Shown: positions 1-64,000 of the stretch, one piece after another
Position numbering within the stretch: position 1 is the stretch's first letter
Layout of the letters: each line of letters begins with the position of its first letter
Virus record (IMG/VR): IMGVR_UViG_3300043395_001986
Coordinates: 45,308 to 109,307 of that record
Length of the DNA stretch: 64,000 bases
Source of the DNA: a virus
Lineage: Duplodnaviria > Heunggongvirae > Uroviricota > Caudoviricetes
Direction: 5' to 3' (one strand)
Notes under the pieces: model-generated
What the model was told of the DNA's origin: nothing
What the model saw: only the letters and a program-made list of their open reading frames with translations
Database searches by the model: none
Program-made: the position numbers and the translations under genes

Positions 1-2
1 TT

Positions 3-1349
3 AGTGTATATGATAGGAAACTTGTTATAGAAATACCAAATTCTGGAGCAAGTAGATTTGTAAATAATAAAGTTAGATTTGAAGAACAAACATTAATAAA
101 TGACCTTTCTCCTTTAAAAAGAGCAACTGCTAAACAATACGACCAAGCAGCAGCCGATTCAAATAAATTAGGAATATTCTTTTCACCAAATAAAGATTTG
201 GATTTAAGTATAGCACAATCGTTTGGTGGGATTCAATTTGATGATTATATAGGAGACCCATCAGATGATAATGAGTATGAATATAAAACATTAAAATCAA
301 TAAGAAACTATTGGTTCAAACGTATTGATTTAAATAAACGCAACATATACGATTACATAAGATTAATACGTTCATATGATAAATCATTATTTGAAAATAT
401 AAAACAAATGTTACCAGCGAGAGTAGCAACCAATATAGGATTGTTGATTGCTCCGCATATGCTAGAACGTTCAAAAGTTGATATAAATACAAAACCACAA
501 ATAGAAAATTTATATTATAGTGGTACATATGAATACCATAATGATTATAATGTAACAATGGATGCTGATTTGTATAAGGAAGCATTGATTGGTGCTAAAC
601 AATTATTACCAACCTTCAACGCATCAGATGAAACAATAAGTGGTACTATTAATTTAGAAATAAATAAAAGTTTAGAAACTTATATTTCAAGCCTAGAAGG
701 GACGATAACGGAAACCCAAAAAATAGATACATTTTATGCATCAAATGAATATTACACAGCAAGTATAGATGCCGGATTAAGGCAACCAACATTGTTGGGT
801 TCTATTGGTTATCAAGATGCACAAAAAATAGTTGGAGTTGGAAGTAATTTTATAGATTATGGATTTGGAAACTATTTTACAAATGGATATTTTGATTACA
901 AATATTATGAAAATGGAAAACTTAATCATAAAAGATATAAAGGTTCGTTAGTAACAACAACATCAAAAACATTTACAGGATTATACACCGGTTCGGAAGG
1001 TAAAACAACATTTAAGTATGGTGGTGCAAAACCTATATTTATATCTGGTTCGGTTACTGAATTGATATTACAAGAAAGTGGCTCTAATTCATTAAATGTT
1101 GGTGATGAATTTAACAAACAGATAATATCTAATGTTAAAACAATCAATGGATATTTACCAACGCATTATAAAAATGTTGGTGACTTAACAACCGGTTTAA
1201 AAAATAGTTATTATAAAGGTTCAAAACAAACAAGTAATACAACTATTGATGGAAAATCACCGGTTGAAATATTCATATCTAATCCGACTGTATTAAGAGT
1301 TAATAAGCAAGGTAGAGTTAGTGGTGAACCAATTTTAGAAGTTGATTAA
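3..1349 (+). CDS. Probable virion structural (baseplate-region) protein, 5'-truncated
   Basis: The frame is open from position 3 (SVYDRKLVIEIPNSG...), so the track's TTG start at 198 is internal. Lies upstream of structural-type genes and carries TGS/SGS motifs. Confidence 0.5.
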   Translation, partial: SVYDRKLVIEIPNSGASRFVNNKVRFEEQTLINDLSPLKRATAKQYDQAAADSNKLGIFFSPNKDLDLSIAQSFGGIQFDDYIGDPSDDNEYEYKTLKSIRNYWFKRIDLNKRNIYDYIRLIRSYDKSLFENIKQMLPARVATNIGLLIAPHMLERSKVDINTKPQIENLYYSGTYEYHNDYNVTMDADLYKEALIGAKQLLPTFNASDETISGTINLEINKSLETYISSLEGTITETQKIDTFYASNEYYTASIDAGLRQPTLLGSIGYQDAQKIVGVGSNFIDYGFGNYFTNGYFDYKYYENGKLNHKRYKGSLVTTTSKTFTGLYTGSEGKTTFKYGGAKPIFISGSVTELILQESGSNSLNVGDEFNKQIISNVKTINGYLPTHYKNVGDLTTGLKNSYYKGSKQTSNTTIDGKSPVEIFISNPTVLRVNKQGRVSGEPILEVD

Positions 1350-1376
1350 TAAAATAAAAATATTTTTTGAATACTT

Positions 1377-1385
1377 ATATTTATA
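1377..1385 (+). promoter_or_regulatory. Putative late promoter ATATTTATA
   Basis: Recurrent intergenic motif upstream of structural genes. Confidence 0.55.
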
Positions 1386-1406
1386 ATTTAGAAATATATA
1401 CACAAT

Positions 1407-2027
1407 ATGGCATATTTAGATAACACATCATTGACAGTAGATGCAATTCTTACTAAAAAAGGTAGAGAAAAATTAGCAGCAGGACAACCATTAGGTATTA
1501 CTCAATTCGCATTGGGTGATGATGAAATTGATTATTCATTATACGAACCAGCACACCCATTGGGGTCTGCGTATTATGATTCTGCAATATTAGCAACTCC
1601 AGTATTAGAAGCATCTCCAGATGAAACACAAGTTTTAAAATACAAATTAGTTACATTACCAAAAGGTAGTACAAAGATACCTGTGGTATCATTAAATGTA
1701 ACAGCAATTACAGGAAATACAAATTCTGGTAATTTCCCAATAAACCCATCAACATCTCCAGCCGGAAATAGAACAGCTGGTTACACTGCTATTTTATCAA
1801 ATAAAAATGCAGGTTCGTTAATAGGTGAGGGTATTACTGGTAATGTAGGAACTATTTCAACATTCTTGGGTGATAGTACAACTGCAACTGCGGAAGTAGC
1901 GAAAGGATTAACATTTACATTCATACCTAACCTATCATTAACATCAACTATTAGAACTACAATTACAATATATGGTAATGAAACAGGAGGTTCGGTAACT
2001 ATTCCAGTAACAATATCAAAAGTTTAA
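1407..2027 (+). CDS. Putative baseplate/virion structural protein
   Basis: N-terminal DAILTKKGREKLA...ITQFALGDDEIDY resembles N-termini of phage baseplate/tail-collar proteins; beta-rich C-terminus. Confidence 0.45.
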   Translation: MAYLDNTSLTVDAILTKKGREKLAAGQPLGITQFALGDDEIDYSLYEPAHPLGSAYYDSAILATPVLEASPDETQVLKYKLVTLPKGSTKIPVVSLNVTAITGNTNSGNFPINPSTSPAGNRTAGYTAILSNKNAGSLIGEGITGNVGTISTFLGDSTTATAEVAKGLTFTFIPNLSLTSTIRTTITIYGNETGGSVTIPVTISKV

Positions 2028-2036
2028 TAAAAATAT

Positions 2037-3254
2037 ATGGCACAATTAGGACAAAATACGGGTACCCAACTTACAACTGATTTATCAGCGTACCTTTTGC
2101 AACAAAAAACAAATGCAAACGGAGCAGTAGATACAACAGAGTTGGCAAGTATTATCAATAGATACTTAACAACAGGTGAACAATTAATAAGTGAGACAGT
2201 TGCCTTAACAAATCAAATTTATAAAAGATTTAATACATCTGATATTGTAACTGCAAAAACTGAAATAGTAACAACTGGATTATGGAGTAATGGAAGTGGT
2301 AGTTTAGTATCATTTTATACAGGCTCGGATTCAGATATTGCAGGACATAGTGGCTCAGCAGCATCTAAATTTTATTTTAATGTATATGGAAGTACAAATA
2401 CCGGTTCAGCAGATGTAGAATTTGCTATTGCATATGGACATTTTAATGGTAGTGGTTCTCCTGATTTAGCAGATGATGACCAATCTAAACAAGAATCAAA
2501 AGTAACATATTCTCAATATAGATTAGCACTATTAGGAACTGCAGATGCCAAATTCAGCGTTTACAGCGGTTCTACTGCAGGTGGATGGGATACTAATGAT
2601 ATCTATGTAATAAACATTGCTCGTTCAAATTATAGAGAAAAATTGGATGCTGGTAATTTACAATTAACATTATCTGGTTCTAATGGAATTTATAAATTTA
2701 TTGATGATAGCGGAATGGCAGATGCAGATACAGCAAATGGCCAAAGAGTATTCAATATTATTAGTGGTTCTATAAATTTAGGAAGTGGAGTTGGCTCAAC
2801 AGAATTAACACCAACTGCATCTAATCAACAAGGATTTGGATTATTCTATCCAGATGCAGGTATTATAGTATTAAACCCAGCAGCGTTATCTTCAATGGTA
2901 GGTAGTGAATTATCACCATCAGATAGTGGTGTTTCTGAATATAATCACAAAAAATTATTAAAAGCTATTCAAGGCGGAGGTGATTTCCAGGCAAGAAGAA
3001 CTGAAAATGTTTCTACATCTCATTATTTTGTAAGAGTTCAAAATAGAGAATTTAATTTCTCAAATAACCCTACATTTGCAGATTCAACTGGTTCTTTCTC
3101 TCAAGATACATTCAAAACAGACCCTAAAGTTTATATTACAACAATAGGATTATATAACGATTCAAACGAACTTTTAGCAGTAGCTAAAACATCACAACCA
3201 ATCAGAAAAACTTTTGATTCAGAAGCTCTGATTAAAGTTAAATTAGATTTCTAA
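2037..3254 (+). CDS. Putative virion structural protein (C-terminal YITTIGLYND..LLAVAK domain)
   Basis: C-terminal motif shared with 3325..4779 and reminiscent of tail-collar domains; many SGS/TGS motifs. Confidence 0.5.
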   Translation: MAQLGQNTGTQLTTDLSAYLLQQKTNANGAVDTTELASIINRYLTTGEQLISETVALTNQIYKRFNTSDIVTAKTEIVTTGLWSNGSGSLVSFYTGSDSDIAGHSGSAASKFYFNVYGSTNTGSADVEFAIAYGHFNGSGSPDLADDDQSKQESKVTYSQYRLALLGTADAKFSVYSGSTAGGWDTNDIYVINIARSNYREKLDAGNLQLTLSGSNGIYKFIDDSGMADADTANGQRVFNIISGSINLGSGVGSTELTPTASNQQGFGLFYPDAGIIVLNPAALSSMVGSELSPSDSGVSEYNHKKLLKAIQGGGDFQARRTENVSTSHYFVRVQNREFNFSNNPTFADSTGSFSQDTFKTDPKVYITTIGLYNDSNELLAVAKTSQPIRKTFDSEALIKVKLDF

Positions 3255-3274
3255 AAATCGTATTGGTATGTGAT

Positions 3275-3307
3275 AAACCCAACCCCGTAAGGTTGGGTTT
3301 TTTATTT
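3275..3307 (+). terminator. Rho-independent terminator
   Basis: AAACCCAACC-ccgtaa-GGTTGGGTTT perfect stem followed by TTTATTT. Confidence 0.85.
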
Positions 3308-3324
3308 CAATATATTTATTTTAT

Positions 3325-4779
3325 ATGATAAAAACTATTCCACAAAGCGATATTAGAATTAGGCCGTTTAAAGTATATAAACGATTTCAACTAACACAAG
3401 ATAATTTAAGCACCGGTTCTTTATCTGGACATCAAAAATTAATTGCAAAGAAAAATGAAGTTGTTGGGGATTTACTAACACCTTCTGCTTCGTTATGGGC
3501 ATCAATACATAGAATGTATTACGATGATATTTACAATCCAATAACAACTTTTGGTACTATATCAAAAAATGTAAATAATTCACCATTATTACAATTTAGA
3601 AAATTAGAAGATAATGCAATTGTATTTACAATACCTCAAGTAAAATTTGGAGAAAAAATAAAACCAGGTTCTTTTACAATTTATGATTCGGATAGAAATA
3701 ATACATTTACGGATAGTTACAACGCCGATGGTGTTTTGTATAGTGATATAGTAGATACAACATGGTCATTATTTAATGCAGAAACTAATAAATTCATATT
3801 TGTAGATGCTGCATTGGTTGAATATGAATTAGAATTAATTAGTTTTAATGCAGATACCGGCCTTTTAGATTTAAAATATAATGGTAATCCAGGTACATTG
3901 AAAATAAAATATTTAAATACAAACACAGGTGGTATTGTTATATTTGATGTTACACAATATACATTTGATTTTATTACAGGATTTCAAATTGCACCAGCAG
4001 GTAATATTTTTTATGAGCATGGTATAGCAGTAGTTACTCAATTAGAAGATGTTAATACGGATTTCTTAAATTATCAAATTGATTATAAATCAACAAAAAC
4101 AATTTATGAAAATGAATATTTTATAAGCGTTGATTCGGATGAATTTAATTATTCCACAAATCCAACAGCTTATTATGAGGTAGGTGCTATAACTGATTCA
4201 TTTATTACTGGAGATAAAATAAAATATAGAATTAATGCAGGCTCTACTGCCGGTGGTTTTGTTAACTATTTGGATGATAAAGGAAGTGAACAGACTATTT
4301 TTATTGAACCAAATAATGTATATACAATTAGAGTATCCAAATTTTATGATTATGAACCAATAAATTGGTCATTCGAAGAAATACCAGATGGTGGTTCAAA
4401 TGTATTATATAAAATTCCTGGCGAACAGCGCATGATTCAAAAAGGAACATTACCGGATGGAACGGAATACGATTACAGAAGACCTTTTTCTAGAACATTT
4501 AATTCAGGTTCCAAATACATGGGTATTAATTTAACTGGCTCATTAGAAGTTAGTGGTAAATATGGATATGGTCAATGTGAAATAACAAAATCATTTGATG
4601 GTGGTAATAGATTTGAATATACATCATCTATTGAAATTGAAAACTCTTTAACACCTTATGTAACAACAATTGGTTTATATGATGAAAACTATGATATGAT
4701 TGCTGTTGCTAAATTACCAACACCAATAAAAGTATATCCAGATTATCCTGTAAACTTTTTAGTAAGAATTGACACTTAA
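3325..4779 (+). CDS. Putative virion structural protein, paralog of 2037..3254
   Basis: Shares GNIFYEHGI/GLFYPDAGI, EFNYSTNPT/EFNFSNNPT and YVTTIGLYD..MIAVAKL motifs; ATATTTAT at 3312-3319. Confidence 0.5.
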   Translation: MIKTIPQSDIRIRPFKVYKRFQLTQDNLSTGSLSGHQKLIAKKNEVVGDLLTPSASLWASIHRMYYDDIYNPITTFGTISKNVNNSPLLQFRKLEDNAIVFTIPQVKFGEKIKPGSFTIYDSDRNNTFTDSYNADGVLYSDIVDTTWSLFNAETNKFIFVDAALVEYELELISFNADTGLLDLKYNGNPGTLKIKYLNTNTGGIVIFDVTQYTFDFITGFQIAPAGNIFYEHGIAVVTQLEDVNTDFLNYQIDYKSTKTIYENEYFISVDSDEFNYSTNPTAYYEVGAITDSFITGDKIKYRINAGSTAGGFVNYLDDKGSEQTIFIEPNNVYTIRVSKFYDYEPINWSFEEIPDGGSNVLYKIPGEQRMIQKGTLPDGTEYDYRRPFSRTFNSGSKYMGINLTGSLEVSGKYGYGQCEITKSFDGGNRFEYTSSIEIENSLTPYVTTIGLYDENYDMIAVAKLPTPIKVYPDYPVNFLVRIDT

Positions 4780-4806
4780 CATATATTTATATAAAATAAA
4801 CGAATT

Positions 4807-5058: not shown

Positions 5059-5063
5059 TTTTA

Positions 5064-5477: not shown

Positions 5478-5479
5478 TT

Positions 5480-5511: not shown

Positions 5512-5517
5512 TTATCT

Positions 5518-9731: not shown

Positions 9732-12700
9732 ATGGCAGTAGAGAAAAAACAGGTTTTTAAACAGAATTTAAAAAGCTATAGCACATTCATCCAAGATACG
9801 GCTGCAAATTCTACCTATTTTAAAGTAACAGAATTACCAGATACATTAACAGGTGGTAAAAATGCATTCTTAATAGAAGGTTCTGATTTACTACAATTGG
9901 GTAGTGAAATTAAAATTGAAATTTTAGATTCAACGGGTGTACCTGTTTATATAGAAGCAGCAGACGGTTATGCTACATCATCATTTGATTCAAATGGTAA
10001 TCCAATAATTACCGAATATTACGAAGGTACTTCTAAAATAGTATCAATGTATGTTTATACCGATACATCATACGGTCCTGCTCAAATTACAATATTAGGT
10101 GAAGCAAAATATTATTTAGACCAAAATAATATTAAACAAGAAATACCTGCAGATTGGAAAGGTGTTTATAATGTTAAATGGCAACGAAATTTAACAATAA
10201 ATCCGTCATTAGCTAATACAACAAAGGTAAGATTTTATAAAAGGCCAACTGCTAATATTACTGAAATACTTTCACCAATTTATAGAATTGAAAGTGGTTC
10301 AAAAGTAGCATCAAACGTTACGGCTTCTTTTGCAAATATTATTTTATCTCAATTAGATACCTTTGCAGGAGATGTAAAAAGAGTAAAAGTATTTAGAACA
10401 TCAGCGGGCGATATATCCGATTACGATTTGATACAAGATATATATGTCGAATCAAAGGAATTATTAACTACACTTAATATAAGTGGAAGTGTTAAAGGAG
10501 AAGCGGGTTTATTGACGGCCGATACATTAAAAAATACATGGAATACTGGCTCATTAAACACATATTTAACGAGTAGTAGAATTGATAATGGATGTAGACT
10601 TACAGGTAGTGGATATTTTACATTTACAGGTTCATTGAACATCAGTTCTACAAATGTTTATGAATTAACATTAGATGCATTTTATTCATCATCAACCGCT
10701 AGTAATTTGGGAATTTATATTAGTGGTTCTAATAATGGTGAAATTTTATTAGCATCACTAAATGGAATAACTCCTGTTAAGAATTTAGAAAATCAATTGA
10801 TATCATTTACACTATCAAATGATGAACCAAGTGCTAGTCTATATTTATCTCAATCACAAGGTGAATGGCATATAGGTAATTTAAGTTTAAAACTAACAGA
10901 AGATACTGCATTTTCTCCAACTGAAATAAGTTTTGTTACATCAATGCCAACTGTCATTGGTAATGAGACGTATAATTTCAAATTTGAGTTTTATGATGTA
11001 AATAATAACTATGTTCCAATATCAGTTACACAATCGGCAACATTTACTGGTGGTAATAATAATATTGGTGGCACAATTACATTAATTAGTGGTTCAACGA
11101 GTGCATTATCACAATCAGTATCTTATGATTTATGGTTCAATCCAACTGGTAGTTTAACAGCATCGGTTTCACATTCATATTCATCATCATTAGGATATAC
11201 CGCAGCAGCCAGTGCGTCATTACAAAGTTCATCTTTATATATAAGTTCATCTGTTAGTGGGACAATTTCAAATGTAAGTTCATCATTAAGTAGTAGTATA
11301 TCAACATCACTTTCACAATCATACGCATACACGGACGAAATTTCAGCATCTAATTTTTTAGAATTTACAGATGTTAATAGTAGAATATTCACCGATTCAA
11401 CTGGATTGGTAAGTAGAACACCTTCAACCGGTGTTTCTGGTTTATATTTAGGTCAGAGTTATTTAGGTTATCACAACGGAAATGGGCTAGTTACCGGTTG
11501 GAAAACATATATGTCTAATACTGGTAATTTCTTTTTAACATCATCACAAACAAATGGAGGATATTTAGTTTGGGATAGTGCAGCAGCAACCTTACAAATA
11601 AAAGGTGCAATTGATATAACAGGTGGTTCAGCAAGAACTGATATAGATAACGCAGCCCTATCTGCTTCAAATGCATTTGATTCTGCAAGTTCGTATAGTG
11701 CATCAATATCCGCATCAACATTCTTTACAACAAATTTATTAGATGGTAGAATATTCACAGATTCAACGGGTAAAATAGTAAAACCACCAGTAAATACTGC
11801 ATCTAATTATGGATTATATTTAGGTTCTTCATATATGGGGTTTTATAGTGGAAGTGGTTGGAGAACCTATATGGATAATTTAGGAAAATTCTATTTAACA
11901 GGCTCTCTAACAGATGGATATTCAAATTATTTAACGTGGGATGGTGCAGGAACATTGACTGTAGCGGGTGCAATTAATATAACAGGTGGAACGGCAAATG
12001 ATAGAATTAATGGAGTAGCAGATTCCGCATCAGCAGCAAGTGCAAGTGCTTTTAATGCAAGTGGAAGTGCATTTGCAGCAGATTCAAAAATATTCACAGA
12101 TGCAAATGGTAGAATAGTAAAAGCACCTTCAACTGGTGTAGCCGGCTTATTTTTAGGAAGTTCTTATTTAGGTTATCACAACGGAGATGGTACAGCATTA
12201 GGTTGGAAAACCTATATGGCTAATAATGGTAATTTCTTTTTAACAGGTTCAACGGGTGGTTGGTTAAAATGGGATTCAAGCGCAGGAACATTGGATATAA
12301 AAGGTTCTATTAATATCACAGGTGGAAACGCAGCAACTCAAGATTATGTAAATACTGCAACATCTTCATTATCGGGTTCAGTAGCAACATCTGTAAACGC
12401 TGCACAAACAACTGCAAATTCAGCAAATTCAGCAGCAGCTTATGCATTACAGAATGCAAACACATCTTCAATTAATTCATTAGATGATAGAATTTTTAAT
12501 GATGCTGTTGGTAAAATAAATAAAACGGCAACTCCTGGAACCGGTACTGGATTATTTTTAGACCAAAAAAAGTTAGGGTTTTATGATGGTGCAGATTGGA
12601 AAACATTTATGAGTTCTTCTGGTTTGTTTTATTTAACAGGAAGTGCAGGTGGAAACGCTTTACTATGGGATGGTGCAAACTTAATAATAAGAGGACAAAT

Positions 12701-15820: not shown

Positions 15821-16674
15821 TGAAACCAAAATTAGTTACTGTCACAGGGCATAGAACAAATACATTATGGCATCAACTAAACCATTATAAAGATATGGTT
15901 AGTGATATTTTTGTTATTACATATGAAAACGAAGATTCTCCAAAAAATATAAAAGGAGAAGTTGAATATATTTGCAAACAATTTGGAATTACACCACATA
16001 CTGTCAGAACACATAGACCTTTTGATTGGGAATATGTAACACAATTATATAATGAAACAAAAATGTTACACCCAAATGATTGGTGGATTGTATCAGATGA
16101 TGACGAGTTTCAAATATATAATGATTTAGTTGAAAACATAATTGATGAGTGTGAAGAATTTGGATATAAATTTGTAACGGGTGGATTTATAGATAGAATT
16201 GGGTTTAATGGTGATTTTCCAAAAATAAAAGAGAAAGAAGACATTTGGAAGCAATTTCCAATGGCTGGATTTTTTCGATATCCAATGAGTGGAGCGTGTC
16301 CAAATAAAGTTACCTTAATGAAAGGATGGATAGAACTTACACCTGGACAGCATTATGCAAAAATAGATGGTCAAACAACTTGGAGATGGCAAGGTTGGAA
16401 CCACCCACTTCGATATCCAGTAGATAGAAACTTTACGCAAGTGCATCATTTTAAATGGGATTCAACCGTCGTAGATAGATTGCAAGATGTTGCAAATATT
16501 GGTAAAGTTTATGCATTTTCAAAAGAATATAAAGAAATGTATGAAGCATTAAAAGAAAATAATTTTATGCTTGATATTTATGATAAGAAATATATGTTTG
16601 AAGAAGTAAATAAAATTGGATATCACTACTATAAAAGTTGGGGTAAACTTTCTAAAATAATTCAATCAATATAA
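15820..16674 (+). CDS. GT-A (GT2-like) glycosyltransferase
   Basis: WWIVSDDDEF DxD motif, GQH and VHHFKW. Confidence 0.7.
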   Translation: MKPKLVTVTGHRTNTLWHQLNHYKDMVSDIFVITYENEDSPKNIKGEVEYICKQFGITPHTVRTHRPFDWEYVTQLYNETKMLHPNDWWIVSDDDEFQIYNDLVENIIDECEEFGYKFVTGGFIDRIGFNGDFPKIKEKEDIWKQFPMAGFFRYPMSGACPNKVTLMKGWIELTPGQHYAKIDGQTTWRWQGWNHPLRYPVDRNFTQVHHFKWDSTVVDRLQDVANIGKVYAFSKEYKEMYEALKENNFMLDIYDKKYMFEEVNKIGYHYYKSWGKLSKIIQSI

Positions 16675-31915: not shown

Positions 31916-32461
31916 ATGAGCTCACCAGAATATACTCCATATAAAGATGCATTAACAAATGCAATGACGGAATTGGCAAAAAAAGATGATATCGTTTTTA
32001 TTGGACAACAAATAGTTTATCCAGGCAATCCTATGAGTACAACATTGGGTAATGTATCTAAAGACCTAATGATTGAAGTTCCTGTTATGGAAGAATCACA
32101 AATGGGTATGAGTTTAGGAATGGCGATGGCAGGTAAATTTGTAGTTACATTTTATCCACGTTGGGATTTTATTATTTGTGCAGCAAATCAATTAATAAAT
32201 CATGTTGATAAAATTGGTTTGATGAGTGGCGGAAAATGGAAACCAAATTTATTAATCAGATTAGGCAAGGGTTCTGATAAACCATTAGATCCAGGACATC
32301 AACATAGAGGTAACTATTTTGAAGAGTTTAAATCTATTTGTAAAAATATTGAATTTCACGATTTAAAAACACCTATTGATATTGAATTAGCATACAAATA
32401 TGCAACAAAAGAAGGTGGTATACATGTATTGGTAGAATATCCTGAATTATATTATGCGTAA
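31916..32461 (+). CDS. TPP-dependent E1-beta/transketolase pyrimidine-binding domain protein (short)
   Basis: ALTNAM, EVPVMEESQMGMSLGMAMAG, ANQLINH, GHQH. Confidence 0.8.
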   Translation: MSSPEYTPYKDALTNAMTELAKKDDIVFIGQQIVYPGNPMSTTLGNVSKDLMIEVPVMEESQMGMSLGMAMAGKFVVTFYPRWDFIICAANQLINHVDKIGLMSGGKWKPNLLIRLGKGSDKPLDPGHQHRGNYFEEFKSICKNIEFHDLKTPIDIELAYKYATKEGGIHVLVEYPELYYA

Positions 32462-34705: not shown

Positions 34706-37700
34706 ATGAATAATTTATCCAATTTTTTAGTTGAGCAAATTTTAAAAGAAGCAAAAGAAATGCAGCCTGTGGTTGTATATTCTGGTCGTTTTCAACCATT
34801 TCATAGAGGTCACTATGCAGCATACCAAAGATTAGTATCTAAATTTGGAAGTAATAATGTATTTGTTGCATCATCAAACGCACAGGATGATACTAAATCT
34901 CCATTTTCTTTTAAAGATAAAAAAGAGATTGCAAATAAAATGTTTGGAATTCCAACTTCTAAATTTGTACAAGTTAAAAACCCATACGCACCGGAAGAAA
35001 TATTAAGTAAATTTGATAAAAAGAAAACTTATTATGTGGCAGCAGTTGGTGATAAAGATGCAAGTAGATTAAAAGGTAACTATTTTGTAAAATATACAAA
35101 TAGTGGTGAGAAAGAAGGGTATTTGGATAAGGGATATTACTATATCATACCACCTGAACAGGATGTATTAAGTGGAACGGAAGTTAGAAACGCATTTAAA
35201 AAAGGCACCGATAAAGATAAAAAAAAGTTTTTTACAAATGCATTTGGTAAAATGGATAAAGGAATATTTGATTTAGTTAAAAGAAAATTACAAGAAGAAT
35301 TTATACCAGGCGGAAAATCAGAGGGCAAAACATTGGAAGATATTGCAAGAAAATATGCCGGTCAATATTATGATTGGAGAAATGTAATGCAGATTGTAAA
35401 AGAAGAAATGAAAATCGGTATTAAAATTGAAATGGAACACACAACCGATATCAGAATTGCAGCCGAAATTGCAAAAGACCATTTATGGGAAGATTTGCAT
35501 TACTATACTAAACTAAAAAAGGTAGAAGAAGTTGGGATTGGAACAGGTGGTGTTACTGCACTTTACAAAGGTTACCCTGGAAAAGATGAGTTAAGAGCAA
35601 GAATGAAAAAAGTAGCGGATTATAGAAAGAAAACCGATACCGATAAAGAATATTGTTATGACCCAATAAATGAGGCAAGTTCCGATGGAACTGGATATAG
35701 TGAAGAAATTTTAAATCAGACAGTAGAAAATCCTCATACAAAACAAAAAATTAAAGTTAAAACCGCTCTTAATTATTCGGATGCTAAAGATCCAGGAATG
35801 AGAGCAGCCTATAAAGCTGCATTGGCATTAGTACAAAAGAAAGGAGCACAAAAACCAGTAGAACCAAATGGCAAACCAAAAACAGCAAAACAAGAACCAA
35901 CAGGTCAAAAAGGAGCAGAAGCACCAACAACCAAATCAGCTTCTACTGAAAAACCTAAAGCCCCAACAAAAGCCGGTGACCAACAAAAAGATGAACTTCC
36001 GAAGAATGGGGTAGAACAGCCACAAGGTCAAGGTGGAGAAGAACAACCTCAACCAAATATATTTAAACCAAGCTCAAATAAAGCAGAATTAAAACCTTAT
36101 GGTGATGACACTAATTCTAAAATAAAAGTATTCAAAGGAAAATCATCAGGAGAAGAAATTAAAACTCTTTCATTTAAAGGCGGTGGATATTTGTATGGAA
36201 CTATTCATAGAAATACAAAAATGGTTGATGATATTCTTAATCAAGTTAAAGCAACAATACCGGAAGAAAAGTGGAAAGATATTGTATTTGTGGGTGAAGG
36301 TGGTGCAACCGGAGATGATGGTGAGTTAGTATTTCATGATGAAATGGAATACGCAGCACCTAAATTTAAAGAAATTGGTGCATCAATTGATACATTTGAT
36401 GGTGATGAATTGGATGTACATAATCCGGATTCCAATTTATATCAAATGCAACTTAAGGCAACAGGTCTTAGCCACTCACAAGTAAAGGCTGGAAACTGGG
36501 CAAGTATGATTGGACAGGGAGAAGGAACGGATACTATGAGTCCAGATATTTTTTTAGATGATGAAGGAAAAAAATTCTTACAAGATTCTGCCAAAGAAGC
36601 AGGATTTAAGCCAATAGAAAATTGGGAAAATCCAACCGAAGATGATAAAGATACGCTTTATAGATTATCATTTCCAGAAGATAATTCCGATAAAGAAACA
36701 AAAGTAAACGATATTCAGGTTGCATTTAATAAAGCTAGAGACCTTAATTTAATTAAAAAAACAAAAGAATTAGCATCACAGGGTAAGATACCAGTAACAA
36801 TAGCAGGTGATGGGCACGTTGATTTAGTAGGAAGTGGATTGAAAGTAGCAGGAACTTCAATAGACAAAGAGCCTAAATTACAAGATGTACCGGAAGATTT
36901 TAAAAAGCAAGTTGCCACAAAAATAAACGATTTGCAAAAGATGTTTGATGATGATAAGAAAAATGGAGTAAAAAGAGAAGTATATAATTTATGTCAAATT
37001 TCAGTACCTGGAACAAACTTATACTGCGATGATAACAAAAATATAAAAAGAGATGCAATGCCACAATTCAAAGGAAAACCAATTCCAGGAACCCCGGCAG
37101 CTGAAATGGAATTAAATAAAGATGGTGAAGTTGATACTGAACCAATGTTCAAAAAAATGTTAGCAGATAAGGGAATCAAAGTTACAAATGAAGAAGTACC
37201 TGTTGAATCATTAAAAGCAACACAAAACGAATTAGTTGGACAAAAGGTATTGGGTATGGAAGGAGCATTAGAAGAAAATCCAGAAAATCCAAATATAACA
37301 GCACCTATATACGTTTCAAATGATGGATATGTGGTTGATGGACATCATAGATGGGCAGCGGTTACATCTTATAACCTTAAACACCCAGATAAACCAATAC
37401 CAATGAAAGTAATGATTATTGATGATACCATTGATAATATTATTCCAATGGCAAATAAATTTGCAGAGGATATGGGTATTGCAGCAAAATCGGGTTCAGA
37501 TAAAACAAAAACAGAAAGCTATATTTCATTATCGGATTATTTAGTTAAAACTCTTTTAGAAGATATTAAAAATGAAGATATCCTATTAGAAGGTGGTGCA
37601 TATGGACATATGAATCATCCATTTGACATTCAAATGAATCTTACATTTGGAGATTTAAAAAATATTATTAATAATGCATTGGATGGTAATTTGGGTGTAG

Positions 37701-44748: not shown

Positions 44749-45627
44749 ATGAAATCAATAAAACATTCCAAATTTAGAAACACAGGGTTCATATTTGAAC
44801 TTTTAGTTAGACAAGTGACCTCTGATATTCTAAATGGCAGACCAAAATCTATTGCTGAAAATTTATTAAAAAAATATTTTAATTCTAAAACTGAATTACA
44901 TAGTGAATTAAAATTATATCAATTTTTGGTTAATGAAAAATACAATGCAGAAAATAGAGCAGAAAAGTTCATTAGTGCTATTTTAGAAACACGTTCTAAA
45001 TTAAATGAAAAAAAAATCCTCAGGGAAAAATATGAATTAATAAAAGAAATTAAAGAGAATTATAATTTGGATAGTTTTTTAAATACACAAATTCCTAATT
45101 ATAAAGTTTTAGCTTCTATCTATAAAATATTTGAATATAGCTCTACAAAAGATTCATCTGCAATATACGACCCTAAAGACGTATTAAATACAAAATTAAC
45201 AATTGTAGAACACATTATTTCTAAACCAGCCGGAAAAGGAAATTCAGAAGAAAAAATATACGAATCTTTTAAAAAAGAAGATAAAGATATTAGAGATTTG
45301 AGTTATAAAATTTTAGTTGATTCATTTAATAAAAAATATAAAACATTAGATGAATCTCAAAAAAGTTTATTAAAAACATATATCAATTCTTATACAAATG
45401 AAGATTCTTTATCTGAAAACATTAAGAAAAAAGTAACCGAACTTAAGAATGAATTTATAGCTATTTCAAAAAACATCAATGATAAAGTAACCAAAATTAA
45501 ATTGGCCGAAACTGTCAATCAACTTAAAAAAATTGGTGAAACTAAAAAAATCAAAGATTCTCATATTTCAGCTATAATGATTTCTTATGAATTAAAAAAG
45601 GAATTATTAAATGCAATTGGAAAATAA
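44749..45627 (+). CDS. Hypothetical head-module protein
   Basis: KHSKFRNTGFIFELLVRQ N-terminus, helical; ATATTTATA at 44722-44730. Confidence 0.65.
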   Translation: MKSIKHSKFRNTGFIFELLVRQVTSDILNGRPKSIAENLLKKYFNSKTELHSELKLYQFLVNEKYNAENRAEKFISAILETRSKLNEKKILREKYELIKEIKENYNLDSFLNTQIPNYKVLASIYKIFEYSSTKDSSAIYDPKDVLNTKLTIVEHIISKPAGKGNSEEKIYESFKKEDKDIRDLSYKILVDSFNKKYKTLDESQKSLLKTYINSYTNEDSLSENIKKKVTELKNEFIAISKNINDKVTKIKLAETVNQLKKIGETKKIKDSHISAIMISYELKKELLNAIGK

Positions 45628-50285: not shown

Positions 50286-51923
50286 ATGGCACAATTCGAT
50301 TTATCAAAATTGATGGAAGGCAAAAACCCACAATCAGTAATGCTTGAGCAAACTAGAGGTTTGAGAAGCAAGTGGGAAAAAACTGGCCTTTTAGAAGGTA
50401 TCGGAACTGCAACTGAAAAAGCAGGTATGGCGGTACTTTTAGAAAACCAAGCAAAGCAATTGTTGGATGAAGCAAACTATACTTCAACAACAGCTGGTAA
50501 CGAAGAATGGTCTGGAGTGGCTTTACCACTTGTAAGACGTATCTTCGGTGAAATTGCAGCAAAAGAATTCGTTTCAGTACAACCAATGAACTTACCTTCA
50601 GGTTTGATTTTCTATATGGATTTCAAATATGGTTCTAACCAACCAGGTAACCCATCTTTCCAAAACTCATCATTATTCGGTAGTGGTGGTTTAGCAGGTA
50701 AAGATTCTTTATCTCCATCAGGTGAAAAATTAGGTTCTACTCAAACTGCACAAGGTGGTTTATATGGTGCAGGTAGATTCGGATACACTTTAAACGATAC
50801 ATTCTCATCTTCAGCAGCTACTTTATGGTCTACATCTTCAGTATCTTTCGCAGATGTTAACTTTGATGCTAATTTCTTAGCAACTGGTTCATTAAAGAAA
50901 GTGACTGTAGGTATTCCTTCAGACGCTGATTACAATGGTATCAGAAGTTTCCAAATTGGTGGTGCACAAATCACTTCAGGATACTATCCACAATTTACAA
51001 AATTAGATGGTACAACTTTATCATTCATCGTTCCTGCTATCACTGGTTTATTAACTGGTTCATTAAGATTGGACTACACTAAGCAACCAACTGCAGCAAA
51101 CAGAGGTGATTTCGAAGAGAAAGGTACAAGATTTAATGATGTAAATGATGGTGATGCATTAGACATCCCAACAATCGACCTTGAATTAAAATCAGAGGCT
51201 ATCGTTGCTAAAACTCGTAAGTTGAAAGCAGTATGGACTCCTGAATTAGCTCAAGACTTAAACGCTTACCATTCAATTGATGCAGAAGCTGAATTAACTT
51301 CTATGTTATCTGAATACATCTCTTTAGAGATTGATTTGGAAATTTTAGAAATGTTACAGCAAAATGCATTGACTACAGAAAGATGGTCAGCTAGAGTTGG
51401 TTATGAGTACGACCAAGCAACAAGTGCATTCGTAGCTGATTCTTCAACAAATGCAGCATCTGCATACCAAAAGAACACTTGGTTCCAAACTTTAGGTGTT
51501 AAAATCAATAAGGTATCTAACAAGATTCACCAATTGACTTTAAGAGGTGGTGCTAACTTTATCGTTGCATCTCCAGATGTATGTACTATTTTAGAATCAA
51601 TTCCAGGATTTGCAGTAACTGCTGATAAAGACGCTAAGCAATTCTCTGCTGGTGTTTCTGCAGTAGGTAACATCGCAAACAGATACACTGTCTACAAAAA
51701 TCCTTACATGACTGAAAACGTAATGTTAATGGGTTACAAAGGAAATAACTTCCTTGAGACTGGTGCTGTTTATTCTCCATATGTACCATTGGTATTAACT
51801 CCATTGGTGTACGATCCAGATAACTTCACTCCAAGAAGAGGAGTTATGACTCGTTACGCTAAGAAGATGGTAAGACCAGAATTCTATGGTAAGATTGTTA
51901 TCGCTGATATGGATAAAATCTAA
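50286..51923 (+). CDS. Major capsid protein (T4 gp23-like)
   Basis: LLENQ, LPLVRR, VQPMNLPSGLIF, KTRKLKAVWTPELAQDLNAYH, YSPYVPL, GVMTRY. Confidence 0.96.
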   Translation: MAQFDLSKLMEGKNPQSVMLEQTRGLRSKWEKTGLLEGIGTATEKAGMAVLLENQAKQLLDEANYTSTTAGNEEWSGVALPLVRRIFGEIAAKEFVSVQPMNLPSGLIFYMDFKYGSNQPGNPSFQNSSLFGSGGLAGKDSLSPSGEKLGSTQTAQGGLYGAGRFGYTLNDTFSSSAATLWSTSSVSFADVNFDANFLATGSLKKVTVGIPSDADYNGIRSFQIGGAQITSGYYPQFTKLDGTTLSFIVPAITGLLTGSLRLDYTKQPTAANRGDFEEKGTRFNDVNDGDALDIPTIDLELKSEAIVAKTRKLKAVWTPELAQDLNAYHSIDAEAELTSMLSEYISLEIDLEILEMLQQNALTTERWSARVGYEYDQATSAFVADSSTNAASAYQKNTWFQTLGVKINKVSNKIHQLTLRGGANFIVASPDVCTILESIPGFAVTADKDAKQFSAGVSAVGNIANRYTVYKNPYMTENVMLMGYKGNNFLETGAVYSPYVPLVLTPLVYDPDNFTPRRGVMTRYAKKMVRPEFYGKIVIADMDKI

Positions 51924-57643: not shown

Positions 57644-57658
57644 CGATATTTATACCTA

Positions 57659-57934: not shown

Positions 57935-57948
57935 TATTTATATAACAA

Positions 57949-58605: not shown

Positions 58606-58691
58606 AAAAAAATAATTAAAATTTATTAATATTAAACAAATTTAAAAATCATTTCTCATATTTATATGGGTAAAGGAGTAACTGAACTAAT

Positions 58692-61600
58692 ATGGCACAA
58701 CAAATATTGAATAAACGTGGTAGTTTAGACAGACTATCAGCAAACACCGGCTCAGCACAAAAAGGAGAAATCTTAATTGCAACCGGCTCTAGTAAATTAA
58801 ATAATGTAACAAACGGACAAGGTCTTGTTTTTGCAGCAGTAGAAAGTGGTTCGATTGTAGCCGCTAACAGAATATTGACAGGAAATACACCTCAAATATT
58901 CTCTGCATCTCAATACGGGCATTTAATGGACGGAGTTCCTTTTTATGCTAGTAGTAGCAAAACATTGTACTTATTGGGAGCAGATGGTAACACTGCAATA
59001 GATTTAAGTGGTAACATCTCTGATTTCAGTTCTTCGGTAAGTTCTTCATTTGCAAGTTTAAGTGCATCCGTAGCTTCCGTTACGGGAGATTTCAGTTCAT
59101 CAGTAGCAACTTCATTTAGTGCTAGTGCAGCAAGTGTAGCAGCATTAAGTGCATCAATCCATACAACTATTTTTGATTTTGGTGGATTGAGTTCATCAAT
59201 TGAACAATCTATTTCAGCAAGTTCTGCAAAAGCAGCTTCTGATTTACATTCATATAGTGCATCAGCAGCAACAACTGATAGTGCAAGTGCAGCATCAATT
59301 GCAGCATTAAGTGCAAGTGTGGCAAGTGTTACAGGTGACTTCAGTAGTTCAGTAGCAACTTCATTTTCTGCAAGTGCAGCTTCTCAAAATAATTTAAGTG
59401 CTTCGGTAGCAACTTCATTTAGTGCAAGTGCCGCTTCTCAAAATGATTTAAGTAGTTCGGTAGCAACAACAATTAGTAATTTAAGTTCTTCAATTGCAAC
59501 AACAGATTCAGCGAGTGCAGCTTACGCAGCATCTCAATTGAATTCAGTAAGTGGTGCGGTAGCAACAACTATTAATAATGTAAGTGGTGCGTTTGCAACA
59601 TCAACTTCTGCAAGTAATGCAGCAATTGCTTCATTGAGTGCAAGTGTAGCAAGTGTAACAGGAGATTTCAGTTCATCAGTAGCAACTTCATTTTCTGCAA
59701 GTACAGCTTCTCAAAATAATTTAAGTGCTTCATTAGCAACTACAATTAGTGCAAGTTCGGCAACGGCAGCATCTGATAATTTTAATTTAAGTAGTTCGGT
59801 AGCAACAACAATTAGTAATTTAAGTTCTTCTATTGCAACAACTGATAGTGCAAGTGCAGCTTCTCAAAATGATTTAAGTAGTTCGGTAGCAACAACAATT
59901 AGTAATTTAAGTTCTTCAATAGCAACAACTGATTCTGCATCTAAAGCCGAATATACATCATTTAGTGCAAGTGCAGCATCTCAATTTAATACATTTAGTT
60001 CTTCGCAAGCATCAGTAAATGCAACTTACGCAACAACTGGTTCAAATACATTCGTTGGAACCGAAGTAATTAGTGGTTCATTATATATTACAAATAATTT
60101 AGTAGTATATGGTTCTTCTTCGGTTCAAAATGTAACAGCAAGTGCAGTATCAATTGGTACTAACACTGTCGTTTTAAATACAGCAAATCCTGCAATTAGA
60201 TTTGGTGGTATACAAGTAATTGATTCTGGTTCTTCTCAAGCAACCGGTTCATTACTTTGGGATTCTGAAAATAATGTTTGGTTATATGCTAATCCAGTTG
60301 GAGCAGGATATGGTTCAGCTCGTTTAATTGCAGGACCTCAAAACACTGGTTCATTAGGTGAAGAGATTGGTTTATCAACAACATATGTTCCAGTAGCATT
60401 AGGTGATGACCATATTGGTGATTCAAACATTAAAGTTGTTGGTAACGAAGTAACAATCGAAGCTGGTAATTTATATGTAGAAGGTGCTTTAAGTGCTTCA
60501 ACTATAACTGGTATAGGAAATGTAGCAGACTTTAGTAGTTCAATTAGTGCATCAATTGCATCAATTAATACAAATTTAGGTAGTGGTGGTTCATTAGGAA
60601 CGAGAGTAGCAAATTTAGAAACTATCTCATCTTCTTATTTAGCATTTACACAATCATATTATAGTGATAGTTCATCATTTGATACAAGAATTAGTGCAAG
60701 TAAAGCAGAATACACATCATTCTCTGCAAGTGCAGCAAGTGATTTAAATAATGTAAGTTCTAGTGTAGCAACTTCATTCTCTGCAAGTGTAGCATCTCAA
60801 TTGGAGTTATCCGCGAGTATTGCAACGACCGATTCCGCAAGTGCAGCATATGCAGCATCACAATTATTAAATGTAAGTGGAGCATTTGCAACTTCTACTT
60901 CTGCAAGTAACGCAAGTATAGCAAGTTTAAGTGCATCCGTAGCTTCTGTTACGGGAGATTTCAGTAGTAGTGTAGCAACTTCATTTAGTTCGAGCAATGC
61001 AAATGTAACTTCAATTAGTGGAGCATTTGCAACTTCATTATCTGCAAGTAATGCAAATGTAACTTCAATTAGTGGAGCATTTGCAACTTCTACTTCTGCA
61101 AGTAATGCAGCTATTGAAGCGTTAAGTGCAAGTGTAGCAAGTACAACTGGTAACTTTAGTTCTTCAGTTGCAGGTAGATTAAATGTAATAGAAACAACAT
61201 ATGCAACAACTGGTTCAAATGTATTTCATGGTGACCAAACATTAACCGGTTCATTCTCAATGACGGGTACTGCAAACTTCAATAATGCAGTAGCAGTTAA
61301 TGATTCAAATATGAACTTGGGTAATAGTTCTTCATTGAATTTAACCGGTGGTTCTTCAATTTATGTAGCGGGTGTAGGTGTAATTAGTGGTAGTATCGTA
61401 GGTATAGGTAATGTAAGTGCGTATTCTGCATCAGTAGATAGTAGATTTAGTGCAAGTGCATTTGAATTATCAATATTATCAGCAAGTGTAGCATCAGTAG
61501 GTGGTACATTCAGTTCATCTGTTGCAACTACAATTTCTAATTTAAGTTCATCAATAGCAACAGACTTTAGTGCAAGTGCGGCTTATGCAGCATCTCAATT

Positions 61601-63470
61601 AAGTTCTGTAAGTGGTGCGGTAGCAACTTCATTAAGTGCAAGTAAAGCAGAATACACAGCATTCTCTGCAAGTTCAGCAACAGCATTAAATAATTTAAGT
61701 TCTTCAGTAGCATCTGATTTAAACACTTTAAGTTCATCTATATATCAAACAGATGCAACTCAAAGTAATAATATTTCAATTGTAAGTGCAAGTGCATGGG
61801 GAGCATTTCAAAGTGCAAGTTCATATAGTGGAAGTGCAGCAACCACCTTAAATAACTTCAGTTCATCGGTAGCAACAGACTTTAGTGCGAGCCAAGCGGC
61901 ACAAAATCAAATAATATCAGCTTCTCAATATGATGTGACAGTATTAAGTTCATCTGTTGCAACTTCTTTAAGTGCAAGTGCAGCAAACGTAACTAATATA
62001 AGTTCATCATTTGCAAGTAATATAAACACTTTAAGTGCATCAATATATCAAACAGATGCAACTCAAAGTAACGCAATAAATGCAAATTCTCAAAGTTTTG
62101 CAACTTCTTTAAGTGCAAGTGCAGCAAGTGTAACTGCATTAAGTTCTTCGGTAGCATCTGATTTAAATTCAGTAAGTGGTGCAGTAGCAACTTCTTTAAG
62201 TGCAAGTAAAGCAGAATACACATCATTTAGTGCAAGTGCAGCAAGCAATTTAAATAGTGTAAGTGGAGCATTTGCAACTTCTACATCAGCAAGTAATGCA
62301 GCTATTGCAGCGTTAAGTGCAAGTGTAGCAAGTACAACTGGTGATTTCAGTAGTTCAGTAGCAACTCAATTTAGTGCAAGTGCAGCAAGTGTAACTTCAT
62401 TAAGTTCTTCAGTAGCATCTGATTTAAATAATTTAAGTTCTTCATTAGTAACTTCAATTTCTGCAAGTAATGCAAATGAAGCAGTATGGAGTGCATCAAT
62501 AGCAGGTAGAGCAACTAAATTAGAAGCATCTCAATCGGCATTTGATACGGCATTCACTTTAAGTGGTTCAAGTGTAACTGTCAAAGGAAATTTAGTAGTT
62601 AATGGTACAACTACGACCGTTAATTCTACAACTATTGAATTGGGCGACAACATCATCAGTTTAAATGGTACAACTGCAGCATTCGGTGGTATTCAAATAA
62701 ATGACCAATTAGATGGTTCGAAAGTAAGTGGTTCATTATTATGGAACGCACAAGATGATTATTGGATAGCGGGTAAGAGTGGTAGTGAAGCAAAAATATT
62801 AGTGGCAGTAGGTGATAATGTAGTAAGTTCATCAGCACAAATAACATTAAGTTCTACAACAGGATTTAGTTCATTTGATACCGCAATTTCAACTTCATTC
62901 TCTGCAAGTAATGCAAGTATATCATCTTTATCTGCAAGTGTAGCAAGTGTAACTGGCGACTTTAGTTCATCTGTTGCAACTTCATTTAGTGCTAGTAATG
63001 CAAGTATTGCAGCATTAAGTGCGAGTGTAGCAAGTGTAACCGGAGATTTCAGTAGTAGTGTAGCAACTTCGTTTAGTGCAAGTGCAGCATCACAAACAGC
63101 ATTAAGTTCTTCAGTAGCAACCACTATTAGTAATTTAAGTTCTTCAGTAGCGACTTCATTCTCTGCTAGTTACTTTGAAATTGCAAATAATAGTTCATCA
63201 TTTGCAACTTCAGTATCAGCATCAAATGCAAGTATAGCAAGTTTAAGTGCAAGTGTAGCAAGTGTAACGGGAGATTTCAGTTCATCAGTAGCAACTTCGT
63301 TTAGTGCAAGTGCATTTAATTTAGAAGCATTAAGTGCATCAATATACTTAACTGACGCTACTCAAAGTACCGATATAACAAATAATAGTGCATCTTTTGC
63401 AACCGCAATAAGTTCAAGTAATTACAGAATTACAAACTTGGAGTTAGTAATTGATGGAGGTTCTTTCTAA
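58692..63470 (+). CDS. Giant Ser/Ala/Thr-repeat fibre protein (1592 aa)
   Basis: Long SAS/SSS repeats interrupted by beta-rich modules; ends IDGGSF. Confidence 0.8.
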   Translation: MAQQILNKRGSLDRLSANTGSAQKGEILIATGSSKLNNVTNGQGLVFAAVESGSIVAANRILTGNTPQIFSASQYGHLMDGVPFYASSSKTLYLLGADGNTAIDLSGNISDFSSSVSSSFASLSASVASVTGDFSSSVATSFSASAASVAALSASIHTTIFDFGGLSSSIEQSISASSAKAASDLHSYSASAATTDSASAASIAALSASVASVTGDFSSSVATSFSASAASQNNLSASVATSFSASAASQNDLSSSVATTISNLSSSIATTDSASAAYAASQLNSVSGAVATTINNVSGAFATSTSASNAAIASLSASVASVTGDFSSSVATSFSASTASQNNLSASLATTISASSATAASDNFNLSSSVATTISNLSSSIATTDSASAASQNDLSSSVATTISNLSSSIATTDSASKAEYTSFSASAASQFNTFSSSQASVNATYATTGSNTFVGTEVISGSLYITNNLVVYGSSSVQNVTASAVSIGTNTVVLNTANPAIRFGGIQVIDSGSSQATGSLLWDSENNVWLYANPVGAGYGSARLIAGPQNTGSLGEEIGLSTTYVPVALGDDHIGDSNIKVVGNEVTIEAGNLYVEGALSASTITGIGNVADFSSSISASIASINTNLGSGGSLGTRVANLETISSSYLAFTQSYYSDSSSFDTRISASKAEYTSFSASAASDLNNVSSSVATSFSASVASQLELSASIATTDSASAAYAASQLLNVSGAFATSTSASNASIASLSASVASVTGDFSSSVATSFSSSNANVTSISGAFATSLSASNANVTSISGAFATSTSASNAAIEALSASVASTTGNFSSSVAGRLNVIETTYATTGSNVFHGDQTLTGSFSMTGTANFNNAVAVNDSNMNLGNSSSLNLTGGSSIYVAGVGVISGSIVGIGNVSAYSASVDSRFSASAFELSILSASVASVGGTFSSSVATTISNLSSSIATDFSASAAYAASQLSSVSGAVATSLSASKAEYTAFSASSATALNNLSSSVASDLNTLSSSIYQTDATQSNNISIVSASAWGAFQSASSYSGSAATTLNNFSSSVATDFSASQAAQNQIISASQYDVTVLSSSVATSLSASAANVTNISSSFASNINTLSASIYQTDATQSNAINANSQSFATSLSASAASVTALSSSVASDLNSVSGAVATSLSASKAEYTSFSASAASNLNSVSGAFATSTSASNAAIAALSASVASTTGDFSSSVATQFSASAASVTSLSSSVASDLNNLSSSLVTSISASNANEAVWSASIAGRATKLEASQSAFDTAFTLSGSSVTVKGNLVVNGTTTTVNSTTIELGDNIISLNGTTAAFGGIQINDQLDGSKVSGSLLWNAQDDYWIAGKSGSEAKILVAVGDNVVSSSAQITLSSTTGFSSFDTAISTSFSASNASISSLSASVASVTGDFSSSVATSFSASNASIAALSASVASVTGDFSSSVATSFSASAASQTALSSSVATTISNLSSSVATSFSASYFEIANNSSSFATSVSASNASIASLSASVASVTGDFSSSVATSFSASAFNLEALSASIYLTDATQSTDITNNSASFATAISSSNYRITNLELVIDGGSF
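59020..63420 (+). repeat. Intragenic repeats (SASVASVTGDFSSSVATSFSAS; NLSSS[IV]ATT)
   Basis: About ten SASVAS[VT]TG[DN]FSSSVA copies and many 11- and 18-residue units, also visible in DNA (gcaagtgtagcaagtgtaac). Confidence 0.9.
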
Positions 63471-63499
63471 TATAACAAAGGAAAAAGGATAATAAAAAT

Positions 63500-64000
63500 A
63501 TGGCAACAGCAGTAACACAATCAATTTTATTAAGACGTTCAAATATAGCGGGAAAAGTTCCTACTACGTCATCACTTCAATTAGGTGAATTAGCATTAAA
63601 TACTAATGATGGTAGAGCCTTCATGAAAAAAGATGATGGTGTAAACGTAACCATTGAGCAATTTGTCGTAACTGGTGCAGAAGTAACCGGAAGTATTAAT
63701 ATATTAGGAACAGGTAGTTTTGGTCAATTAGAAATAAATGGTAATGCAAATTTTGACGGAAATGCACAATTTGTAACTGCTTCTGGATATTTTACTGGTT
63801 CATTCGGTGGTGATGGTAGCGGATTATATGGTATTACCGCATCAATGAGACCTGATGACTTTGATTTCAATAGACCAGAAGAAGCATTTGCAGGGACAGT
63901 TGGATATATTCAAGGAACAGGTTCAGCATATTCAGTTCAAGCAGTTAATACAGGAGTTGAATTACTTTATAATGATGTAATATTTAGTGCATTTACAAAT
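63500..64000 (+). CDS. Tail fibre-like protein, 3'-truncated (not in the ORF track)
   Basis: ATG at 63500: MATAVTQSILLRRSNIAGKVPTTSSLQLGELALNTNDGRAF, a common fibre N-terminal module; open to the window end. Confidence 0.75.
   Translation, partial: MATAVTQSILLRRSNIAGKVPTTSSLQLGELALNTNDGRAFMKKDDGVNVTIEQFVVTGAEVTGSINILGTGSFGQLEINGNANFDGNAQFVTASGYFTGSFGGDGSGLYGITASMRPDDFDFNRPEEAFAGTVGYIQGTGSAYSVQAVNTGVELLYNDVIFSAFTN

Follow-up and report, generated by a model that had tools for sequence, protein, structure and literature searches.

Neighbor-Dependent Elimination of the Palindromes ACNGT and CTNAG from a Caudoviricetes Genome, a Probable Footprint of Restriction Avoidance

The restriction enzymes HpyCH4III, TaaI, and Tsp4CI have the specificity ACNGT and are described as reading this palindrome whatever its flanks, and Type II sites with threefold degenerate outer positions exist as well, as illustrated by PspXI (VCTCGAGB) and Bsp1286I (GDGCHC). 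In Helicobacter pylori UM032, the cognate mark on ACNGT is N4-methylcytosine (m4C; PMC4450513, Table 1), and the DNA of phage phiW-14 resists HpyCH4III only where the 3′ neighbor of the site makes a TS step, that is, in ACNGTS (Flodman et al. 2019, PMC6449724). The avoidance of restriction sites is in turn a textbook phage defense, although its survey by Rusinov et al. (2018, PMC6286503) takes sites from known enzymes and describes no neighbor rules. Here, we analyzed a stretch of 64,000 nucleotides (hereafter the window; bases 45308–109307) from the 237,307-bp contig of an uncultivated T4-like virus of the class Caudoviricetes (IMG/VR record IMGVR_UViG_3300043395_001986, with a completeness rating of 100%), and found that ACNGT has been eliminated from this phage wherever it is neither preceded by G nor followed by C.

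With HpyCH4III, TaaI, and Tsp4CI, the pressure that may have acted on this phage shares the five-base core ACNGT, whose central base is free; unlike these enzymes, it wholly spares GACNGT and ACNGTC, 174 flanked sites being retained in the genome, and the enzyme in question would here be a postulated one. The effective site HACNGTD would resemble those of PspXI and Bsp1286I in being symmetric and in excluding one outermost base, their cores being different. To our knowledge, no described enzyme or DNA modification explains such a neighbor rule. As in the phages surveyed by Rusinov et al. (2018, PMC6286503), the phage, which does not look temperate, has wholly lost a short palindrome of the kind read by orthodox Type II systems, other palindromes are depleted in parallel, and relatives purge different sites; unlike in these phages, the purge depends on the neighboring bases, ACNGT being retained at no less than its neutral frequency after a G or before a C, and every Thr–Val junction being converted to such a form. 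The phenomenon is therefore a known one, restriction-site avoidance, in an undescribed, neighbor-dependent variant, which we tentatively attribute to one or more host nucleases that reject a 5′ G flank.

A Neighbor-Dependent Purge of ACNGT

The phage genome has a G+C content of 30%, is coding over ~95% of its length, and carries 273 of its 287 open reading frames (ORFs) on one strand. Expected counts were obtained by shuffling synonymous codons within each gene, such that the protein sequence and the per-gene codon usage are kept (300 shuffles for the whole genome), and this null runs somewhat high: we judge it to be an overestimate, since unpurged relatives carry only 0.6–0.7 of their own null expectation. 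On an exhaustive count, each of the 48 ACNGT sites of the window reads GACNGT[A/T] or [A/C/T]ACNGTC, and HACNGTD is absent where 75.5 ± 5.6 copies would be expected. The same holds without exception for the whole genome, with 174 ACNGT sites and 0 HACNGTD against 263 ± 11 expected, the lowest of the 300 shuffles still holding 226 copies; not one site falls in any of the nine H..D flank classes, for 7–62 expected per class. The sequence-only reading of the window, which had claimed that ACNGT is seen only as GACNGT or ACNGTC and had proposed a full count against a codon-aware null as a check, is thereby borne out at 48 of 48 sites in the window and 174 of 174 in the genome.

Flanked sites, for their part, are commoner than under the null (174 vs. 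104 ± 9 in the genome). Split by strand class, the observed/expected counts are 0/263 for unflanked sites, 102/69.5 for those with a 5′ G, and 70/27.6 for those with a 3′ C, which corresponds to a symmetric rule and to a retention of G/C-flanked ACNGT at 1.5–2.5 times expectation. All four bases occur at the center of the surviving sites, and unflanked sites are missing with every one of them. No conserved base was found at positions beyond −1/+1 around the survivors; a longer hidden motif was thus rejected, only the immediate neighbors being conserved. An artifact of composition or of the null model was likewise rejected, as the control cores GTNAC, TGCA, CANTG, and TCNGA are free of any flank effect.

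The recoding associated with this rule can be followed codon by codon, for every Thr–Val codon pair spells ACNGT. All 137 Thr–Val pairs of the genome carry exactly one fix: 72 come after a codon ending in G, 65 have GTC as the Val codon, and none has both. By comparison, Ala–Val, Ser–Val, and Pro–Val junctions, which cannot form the site and were taken as controls, display either feature in 9.6% of cases (Fisher p ~1e-104 vs. Thr–Val), and G occupies 9.9% of third codon positions genome-wide. The earlier impression that otherwise rare codons such as GTC are put to use at Thr–Val proved accurate: GTC represents 3.4% of Val codons, yet it serves at 65 of the 137 junctions, which account for 65 of its 143 occurrences in the genome. 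Within the window, 43 of the 48 ACNGT sites are Thr–Val junctions, in keeping with the ~40 pairs that had been read there, and the four examples then singled out lie exactly where they had been placed, all on the plus strand. Two of them, GACAGT at 1433..1438 (TTG ACA GTA) and GACTGT at 50903..50908 (GTG ACT GTA, within the major capsid protein gene), are rescued by the preceding G-ending codon, and the other two, ACTGTC at 10950..10955 (CCA ACT GTC) and ACCGTC at 16465..16470 (TCA ACC GTC), by the rare Val codon GTC.

Outside the Thr–Val frame, ACNGT has simply been lost, with 29 and 6 sites remaining in the two other frames against 167 and 59 expected. Moreover, Thr–Val pairs themselves are down to 0.54 of their expectation, against 0.77–0.84 in relatives, when Val–Thr pairs are not depleted. 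It should also be mentioned that AGTC/GACT words are below expectation in the genome (375 vs. 649 under the codon-aware null) and that GAC and GTC are the least used C-ending codons within their respective families; the G and C fixes at ACNGT therefore create words, GAC/GTC, that the genome otherwise tends to avoid.

A Second Core under the Same Rule and Other Depleted Words

Every palindromic core was scanned with all four one-base flank exclusions, strands being split afterwards. The four strongest flank contrasts are all of the not-G 5′/not-C 3′ kind and concern ACNGT, CTNAG, CTATAG (on small numbers), and GATC. Among them, CTNAG follows the same symmetric rule as ACNGT, which is new in this analysis. 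Indeed, unflanked CTNAG is observed 5 times for 191 expected in the genome (CTWAG 0/129, CTSAG 5/62), when flanked copies stand at about the baseline of unpurged relatives, symmetrically, in the 5′-G class (22/39.7) and in the 3′-C class (16/34.2). The window contains 15 flanked copies for 21.6 expected and a single unflanked one for 56.5 expected; the latter, cCTCAGg, is located on the plus strand at 45019..45023 (genome 90326).

Beyond ACNGT, the genome is depleted relative to the null in GATC (24 vs. 459), in CTNAG taken as a whole (50 vs. 273), in ATCGAT (0 vs. 58), in TACGTA (0 vs. 28), in CTRYAG (36 vs. 191), in TCGA (141 vs. 366), and in ACGT (127 vs. 308). CTRYAG is without flank rule, its G-flanked classes standing at 3/24.8 and 12/38.9 and its unflanked class at 18/120. 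The flank effects of CATG and CTAG were dismissed as artifacts of one-strand coding, being seen in all relatives. A flank rule for GATC was rejected as well: this word is purged in every context, its flank effect is weak and asymmetric, and G-flanked GATC in relatives stems from Gly–Ser repeats. As for the GATC copies that survive in the phage, 17 out of 24 read GATCCWGR, mostly as GAT-CCW-GRN (Asp-Pro-Gly/Asp/Glu) on the coding strand, and are kept although GAC-CCN would abolish the site. One such survivor, GAT-CCA-GGA (Asp-Pro-Gly), lies at window positions 32288..32291 on the plus strand (genome 77595) and the other two GATC of the window at 35789 and 51813 (genome 81096 and 97120), all three being of the form GATCC. 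Finally, TACGTA is missing from all five genomes compared, namely, those of the phage itself (G000) and of four relatives (G001–G004), in which 0 copies were observed for 7–34 expected each, and GGTACC is strongly depleted in the same five (0.12–0.28 of expectation); these two purges are family-wide and not lineage-specific.

These words bear on one explanation of the neighbor rule, namely a hypermodification of thymine (or of another base) that would depend on the next base. If a T located before a C were modified, as in M6, ViI, and phiW-14, ACNGT-C would be shielded, and ACNGT is indeed rescued in the phage when its last T has a C on the 3′ side; furthermore, thymidine hypermodification in TS context is a documented case in which the base beside the site decides protection, and it makes HpyCH4III sites partly resistant (PMC6449724). 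We nevertheless consider it the least credible of the explanations examined here. First, the documented rule is TS, hence TG as well as TC, whereas only C rescues in our case: ACNGTG is not spared, the CACNGT[A/G/T] classes being all at 0. Second, GATC, TCGA, and ATCGAT hold an internal TC and yet are strongly purged. Third, the sparing of CTNAG-C would be left unexplained, as the boundary base is there a G. Lastly, the chemistry at work in M6, ViI, and phiW-14 needs a 5-hydroxymethyldeoxyuridine pathway, for which no gene was found in the phage, the profile search of its whole genome returning no match to the thymidylate-synthase-family pyrimidine hydroxymethylase (PF00303).

Confinement to One Lineage and Exchange among Relatives

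Relatives were gathered through the major capsid protein gene, which is T4 gp23-like and lies at 50286..51923 of the window on the plus strand, and the sample comprises 80 viral and 80 metagenomic loci. The capsid gene shares 50–56% amino acid identity with those of an uncultured jumbo phage, of Microcystis phage Mel-JY01, and of Flavobacterium phage immuto, and its synonymous sites are not saturated. Among the loci collected, the purge is common only to the phage and to its nearest relative (L002/L163, with the 44.7-kb record G001), at a capsid identity of 87% and a nucleotide identity of ~81%. Thus, L002 and L163 each contain 0 unflanked and 15 flanked ACNGT, and G001 contains 0 unflanked sites for 53 expected and 29 flanked sites for 19 expected, with 26 of its 26 Thr–Val junctions fixed. 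In the remaining 79 viral and 78 metagenomic loci, HACNGTD is present at normal levels: in 79 related loci totaling 1.05 Mb, it accounts for 1,181 of the 1,435 ACNGT, and the three complete relatives G002–G004, whose capsids are ~66–68% identical to that of the phage, harbor 208–247 copies each.

These three relatives have been purged of other words, without flank effect. TCGA is cleanly eliminated from G003 (0/268 observed/expected) and CTNAG from G004 (0/293), and G002 is purged of GTTAAC (0/48) and GTAC (75/485). Likewise, some of the smaller relatives retain mostly GCTNAG, and others are without any CTNAG. Such a patchwork of different purged palindromes among relatives is what restriction repertoires that differ from host to host would be expected to leave, and strain-specific repertoires are known to do so (Rusinov et al. 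2018, PMC6286503).

The lineage specificity of the purge might also be considered from the angle of self-avoidance, whereby an endonuclease of the phage would destroy host DNA and the phage's own unmodified genome would be kept free of its target HACNGTD. T4-like phages degrade host DNA and must spare their own; the purge is total and extends to genes unique to the phage; and no family could be recognized for 28 of the 30 lineage-specific ORFs examined, so that an unknown nuclease could hide among them. However, the 30 largest of the 58 phage ORFs without homologs in G002–G004 yielded no nuclease or modification family, their only matches being Trp halogenase, PfkB, FG-GAP, DUF6071, and weak ones. 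In addition, several palindromes (GATC, CTNAG, ATCGAT, TACGTA, and CTRYAG) are purged together, in a set that varies between close relatives, which is better accounted for by host repertoires. Self-avoidance appears highly improbable on this basis.

A weak excess of Thr–Val fixes is nonetheless detectable in G002–G004 (18–28% vs. 8–11% in controls). Ongoing selection in phages devoid of methylases was considered as its source and rejected, because the excess is regional and absent from the pooled capsid-region loci, in which 12.7% of Thr–Val junctions are fixed, against 12.5% of controls. G003 (L104–L114), otherwise unpurged, comprises HACNGTD-free islands at 33.5–39.6 kb and 1–15 kb, and the clearest of them, at 33.5–39.6 kb, overlaps a segment (34.4–39.4 kb) that is at least 88% identical to the phage. 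Given this coincidence, we interpret the excess in G002–G004 as mosaic exchange with the purged lineage, which makes it silent on mechanism. From a practical standpoint, purged islands in unpurged relatives could serve as a marker that reveals recent gene exchange between phages of different host histories. A patch of foreign sequence may also explain the HACNGTD found in contig L162, which is >99.8% identical to the phage except for a terminal patch of 190 nt (L162:2709–2898; ~92% identity) that brings one HACNGTD and one unflanked CTNAG: we do not retain this HACNGTD as a tolerated site, for it sits in the divergent patch, which arose by recombination in nature or by chimeric assembly.

Postulated Host Nucleases and Possible Shielding of Cytosines

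The phage thus combines a palindrome far below a codon-aware null, synonymous recoding, and a confinement to one lineage whose relatives purge other sites. The palindromic nature of the motif, its absolute purge through both synonymous and amino acid recoding, and its lineage confinement make an escape from restriction well supported, and we hold it very probable that the purge is restriction-site avoidance as such. As to the neighbor rule, our favored explanation, to which we assign a probability of about 0.45, invokes host nucleases that reject a 5′ G flank. The host of the phage lineage would carry a Type II-like nuclease directed against the palindrome ACNGT, and any cleavable copy would have been lethal often enough for selection to remove them all. 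Where the site lies at a Thr–Val junction and is unremovable without a protein change, the phage would have escaped through a G just 5′ of it or a C just 3′ of it (GTC); elsewhere, the Thr–Val pair would have been dropped altogether. Since one flank suffices to rescue a site, with no preference for two, the agent is expected to need both half-sites intact, like a symmetric dimer. The effective recognition sequence would then be HACNGTD, the flank discrimination most likely belonging to the nuclease itself, and a second nuclease of similar build in the same host would read HCTNAGD.

We infer from these elements that the pressure comes from a nuclease, whose own specificity would set the flank rule. 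This reading has one cost, which is that two sites would obey one odd rule, and it conflicts with none of the comparative data. If the rule is indeed intrinsic, it predicts the undescribed restriction specificities HACNGTD and HCTNAGD; in broader terms, an absolute purge that hinges on one neighboring base tells more than a plain one, in that what an enzyme or shield not seen directly effectively recognizes can be deduced from sequence alone. Under either explanation, the restriction pressure would have been strong enough to rewrite proteins, given that about one third of the Thr–Val pairs of relatives are gone and that about half of the GTC codons are there only as fixes.

Several considerations weigh against host nucleases as authors of the rule. 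ACNGT and CTNAG are two unrelated sites that share one unusual not-G/not-C rule in one phage, and intrinsic discrimination in both cases would require that the two nucleases be related or that their rules agree by chance. We know of no enzyme with HACNGTD or HCTNAGD specificity, and a text search of the literature for GACNGT, ACNGTC, and HACNGTD gave only unrelated primer strings and no HACNGTD or HCTNAGD enzyme. CTNAG also changes the terms in which the sequence-only reading had framed the matter, with an enzyme specific to HACNGTD on one side and an enzyme specific to ACNGT together with a shield on GAC on the other. The restriction escape common to both alternatives stands; the explanation by GAC only is too narrow, because CTNAG obeys the same not-G/not-C rule, and both alternatives must now cover it.

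Extended in this way, the second alternative would have host enzymes read plain ACNGT and CTNAG, and phage DNA marked on the site's only cytosine where this base has a G upstream of it (G-A-C and G-C-T). The mark, for example N4-methylcytosine, could be written by two phage proteins with an SPPY motif, presented below, or by a conserved host methylase; as a mark on one strand would block double-strand cleavage, one G flank would be enough. Several observations fit this scheme: the identical flank rule at two unrelated sites of one genome suggests a common cause acting on the DNA, the rescuing G is directly upstream of the single cytosine in both ACNGT and CTNAG, and GATC, in which the C comes after a T, is little helped by a G flank, as the model predicts. 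Precedents can also be cited, since H. pylori protects its own ACNGT sites with m4C (PMC4450513) and since the protection of phiW-14 DNA against HpyCH4III is a published instance of flank dependence at ACNGT (PMC6449724). We regard this shield as conceivable but somewhat unlikely, notably because G-flanked CTRYAG is not spared in the phage and because of how the candidate genes are distributed.

The search for methyltransferases in the rest of the genome, which the sequence-only reading had suggested, was fruitful in that it uncovered two methyltransferase-like genes, both outside the window. The first, P0001, is an ORF of 523 amino acids (aa) at genome positions 166903–168474 (L001:313–1884), in which motif I (IYDPSSGWGG) is followed by motif IV (FTSPPYF), and the second is its paralog of 410 aa at 147765–148997 (L088:991–2223), with motif I followed by TSPPY; the two thus have in common a motif I of the form DPSSGWGG ahead of motif IV. 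Their catalytic halves are ~30% identical to phage proteins annotated as DNA or N4-cytosine methyltransferases, and both have long N-terminal regions of no known family. They fall below the cut-off of the Pfam family PF01555 (22.3 and 20.8 bits vs. 26.7), when their G003 and G004 orthologs pass it with 29–33 bits, and are best described as putative methylases. No sequence match for P0001 was found in the PDB, and its fold predicted from the single sequence was discarded as unusable (pLDDT 35). In whole-genome profile searches, no match was obtained for Dam-type, C5, or N6_Mtase methylases, nor for the TGT/DpdA family of the 7-deazaguanine pathway (PF01702) in this genome rated 100% complete, which, along with the missing thymidylate-synthase-family gene on which 5-hmdU- or 5-hmdC-derived hypermodification would depend, does not favor a shield.

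The presence of the SPPY genes does not track the neighbor rule across relatives. The orthologs of both genes in G003 and G004 are 75–86% identical to those of the phage, and G004 in particular possesses both (85% and 78%); flanked CTNAG is nonetheless fully purged there, with 0 GCTNAG and 0 CTNAGC against ~71 flanked sites expected. We find it doubtful that the members of the SPPY family act on DNA as context-specific N4-cytosine methylases, with the cytosine of G-A-C and G-C-T as their target, in which case the phage itself would write the neighbor rule: sites whose only cytosine falls in G-A-C or G-C-T would be shielded, and selection would purge only the unshielded copies. Were the shield nonetheless genuine, it would provide a function and a testable target for a whole family of phage methyltransferase-like proteins that is very large and as yet unnamed, as the P0001 family counts ~3,000 unnamed metagenomic members and is conserved over its full length.

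Two side observations can be added. P0001 is 85–86% identical in relatives whose capsids share only 66–68% identity with that of the phage. Outside the window, at 154503–160523 of the genome (L126), the phage encodes a tmRNA of the ordinary one-piece type (Rfam RF00023, 79.5 bits), with 21 tRNA genes clustered after it.

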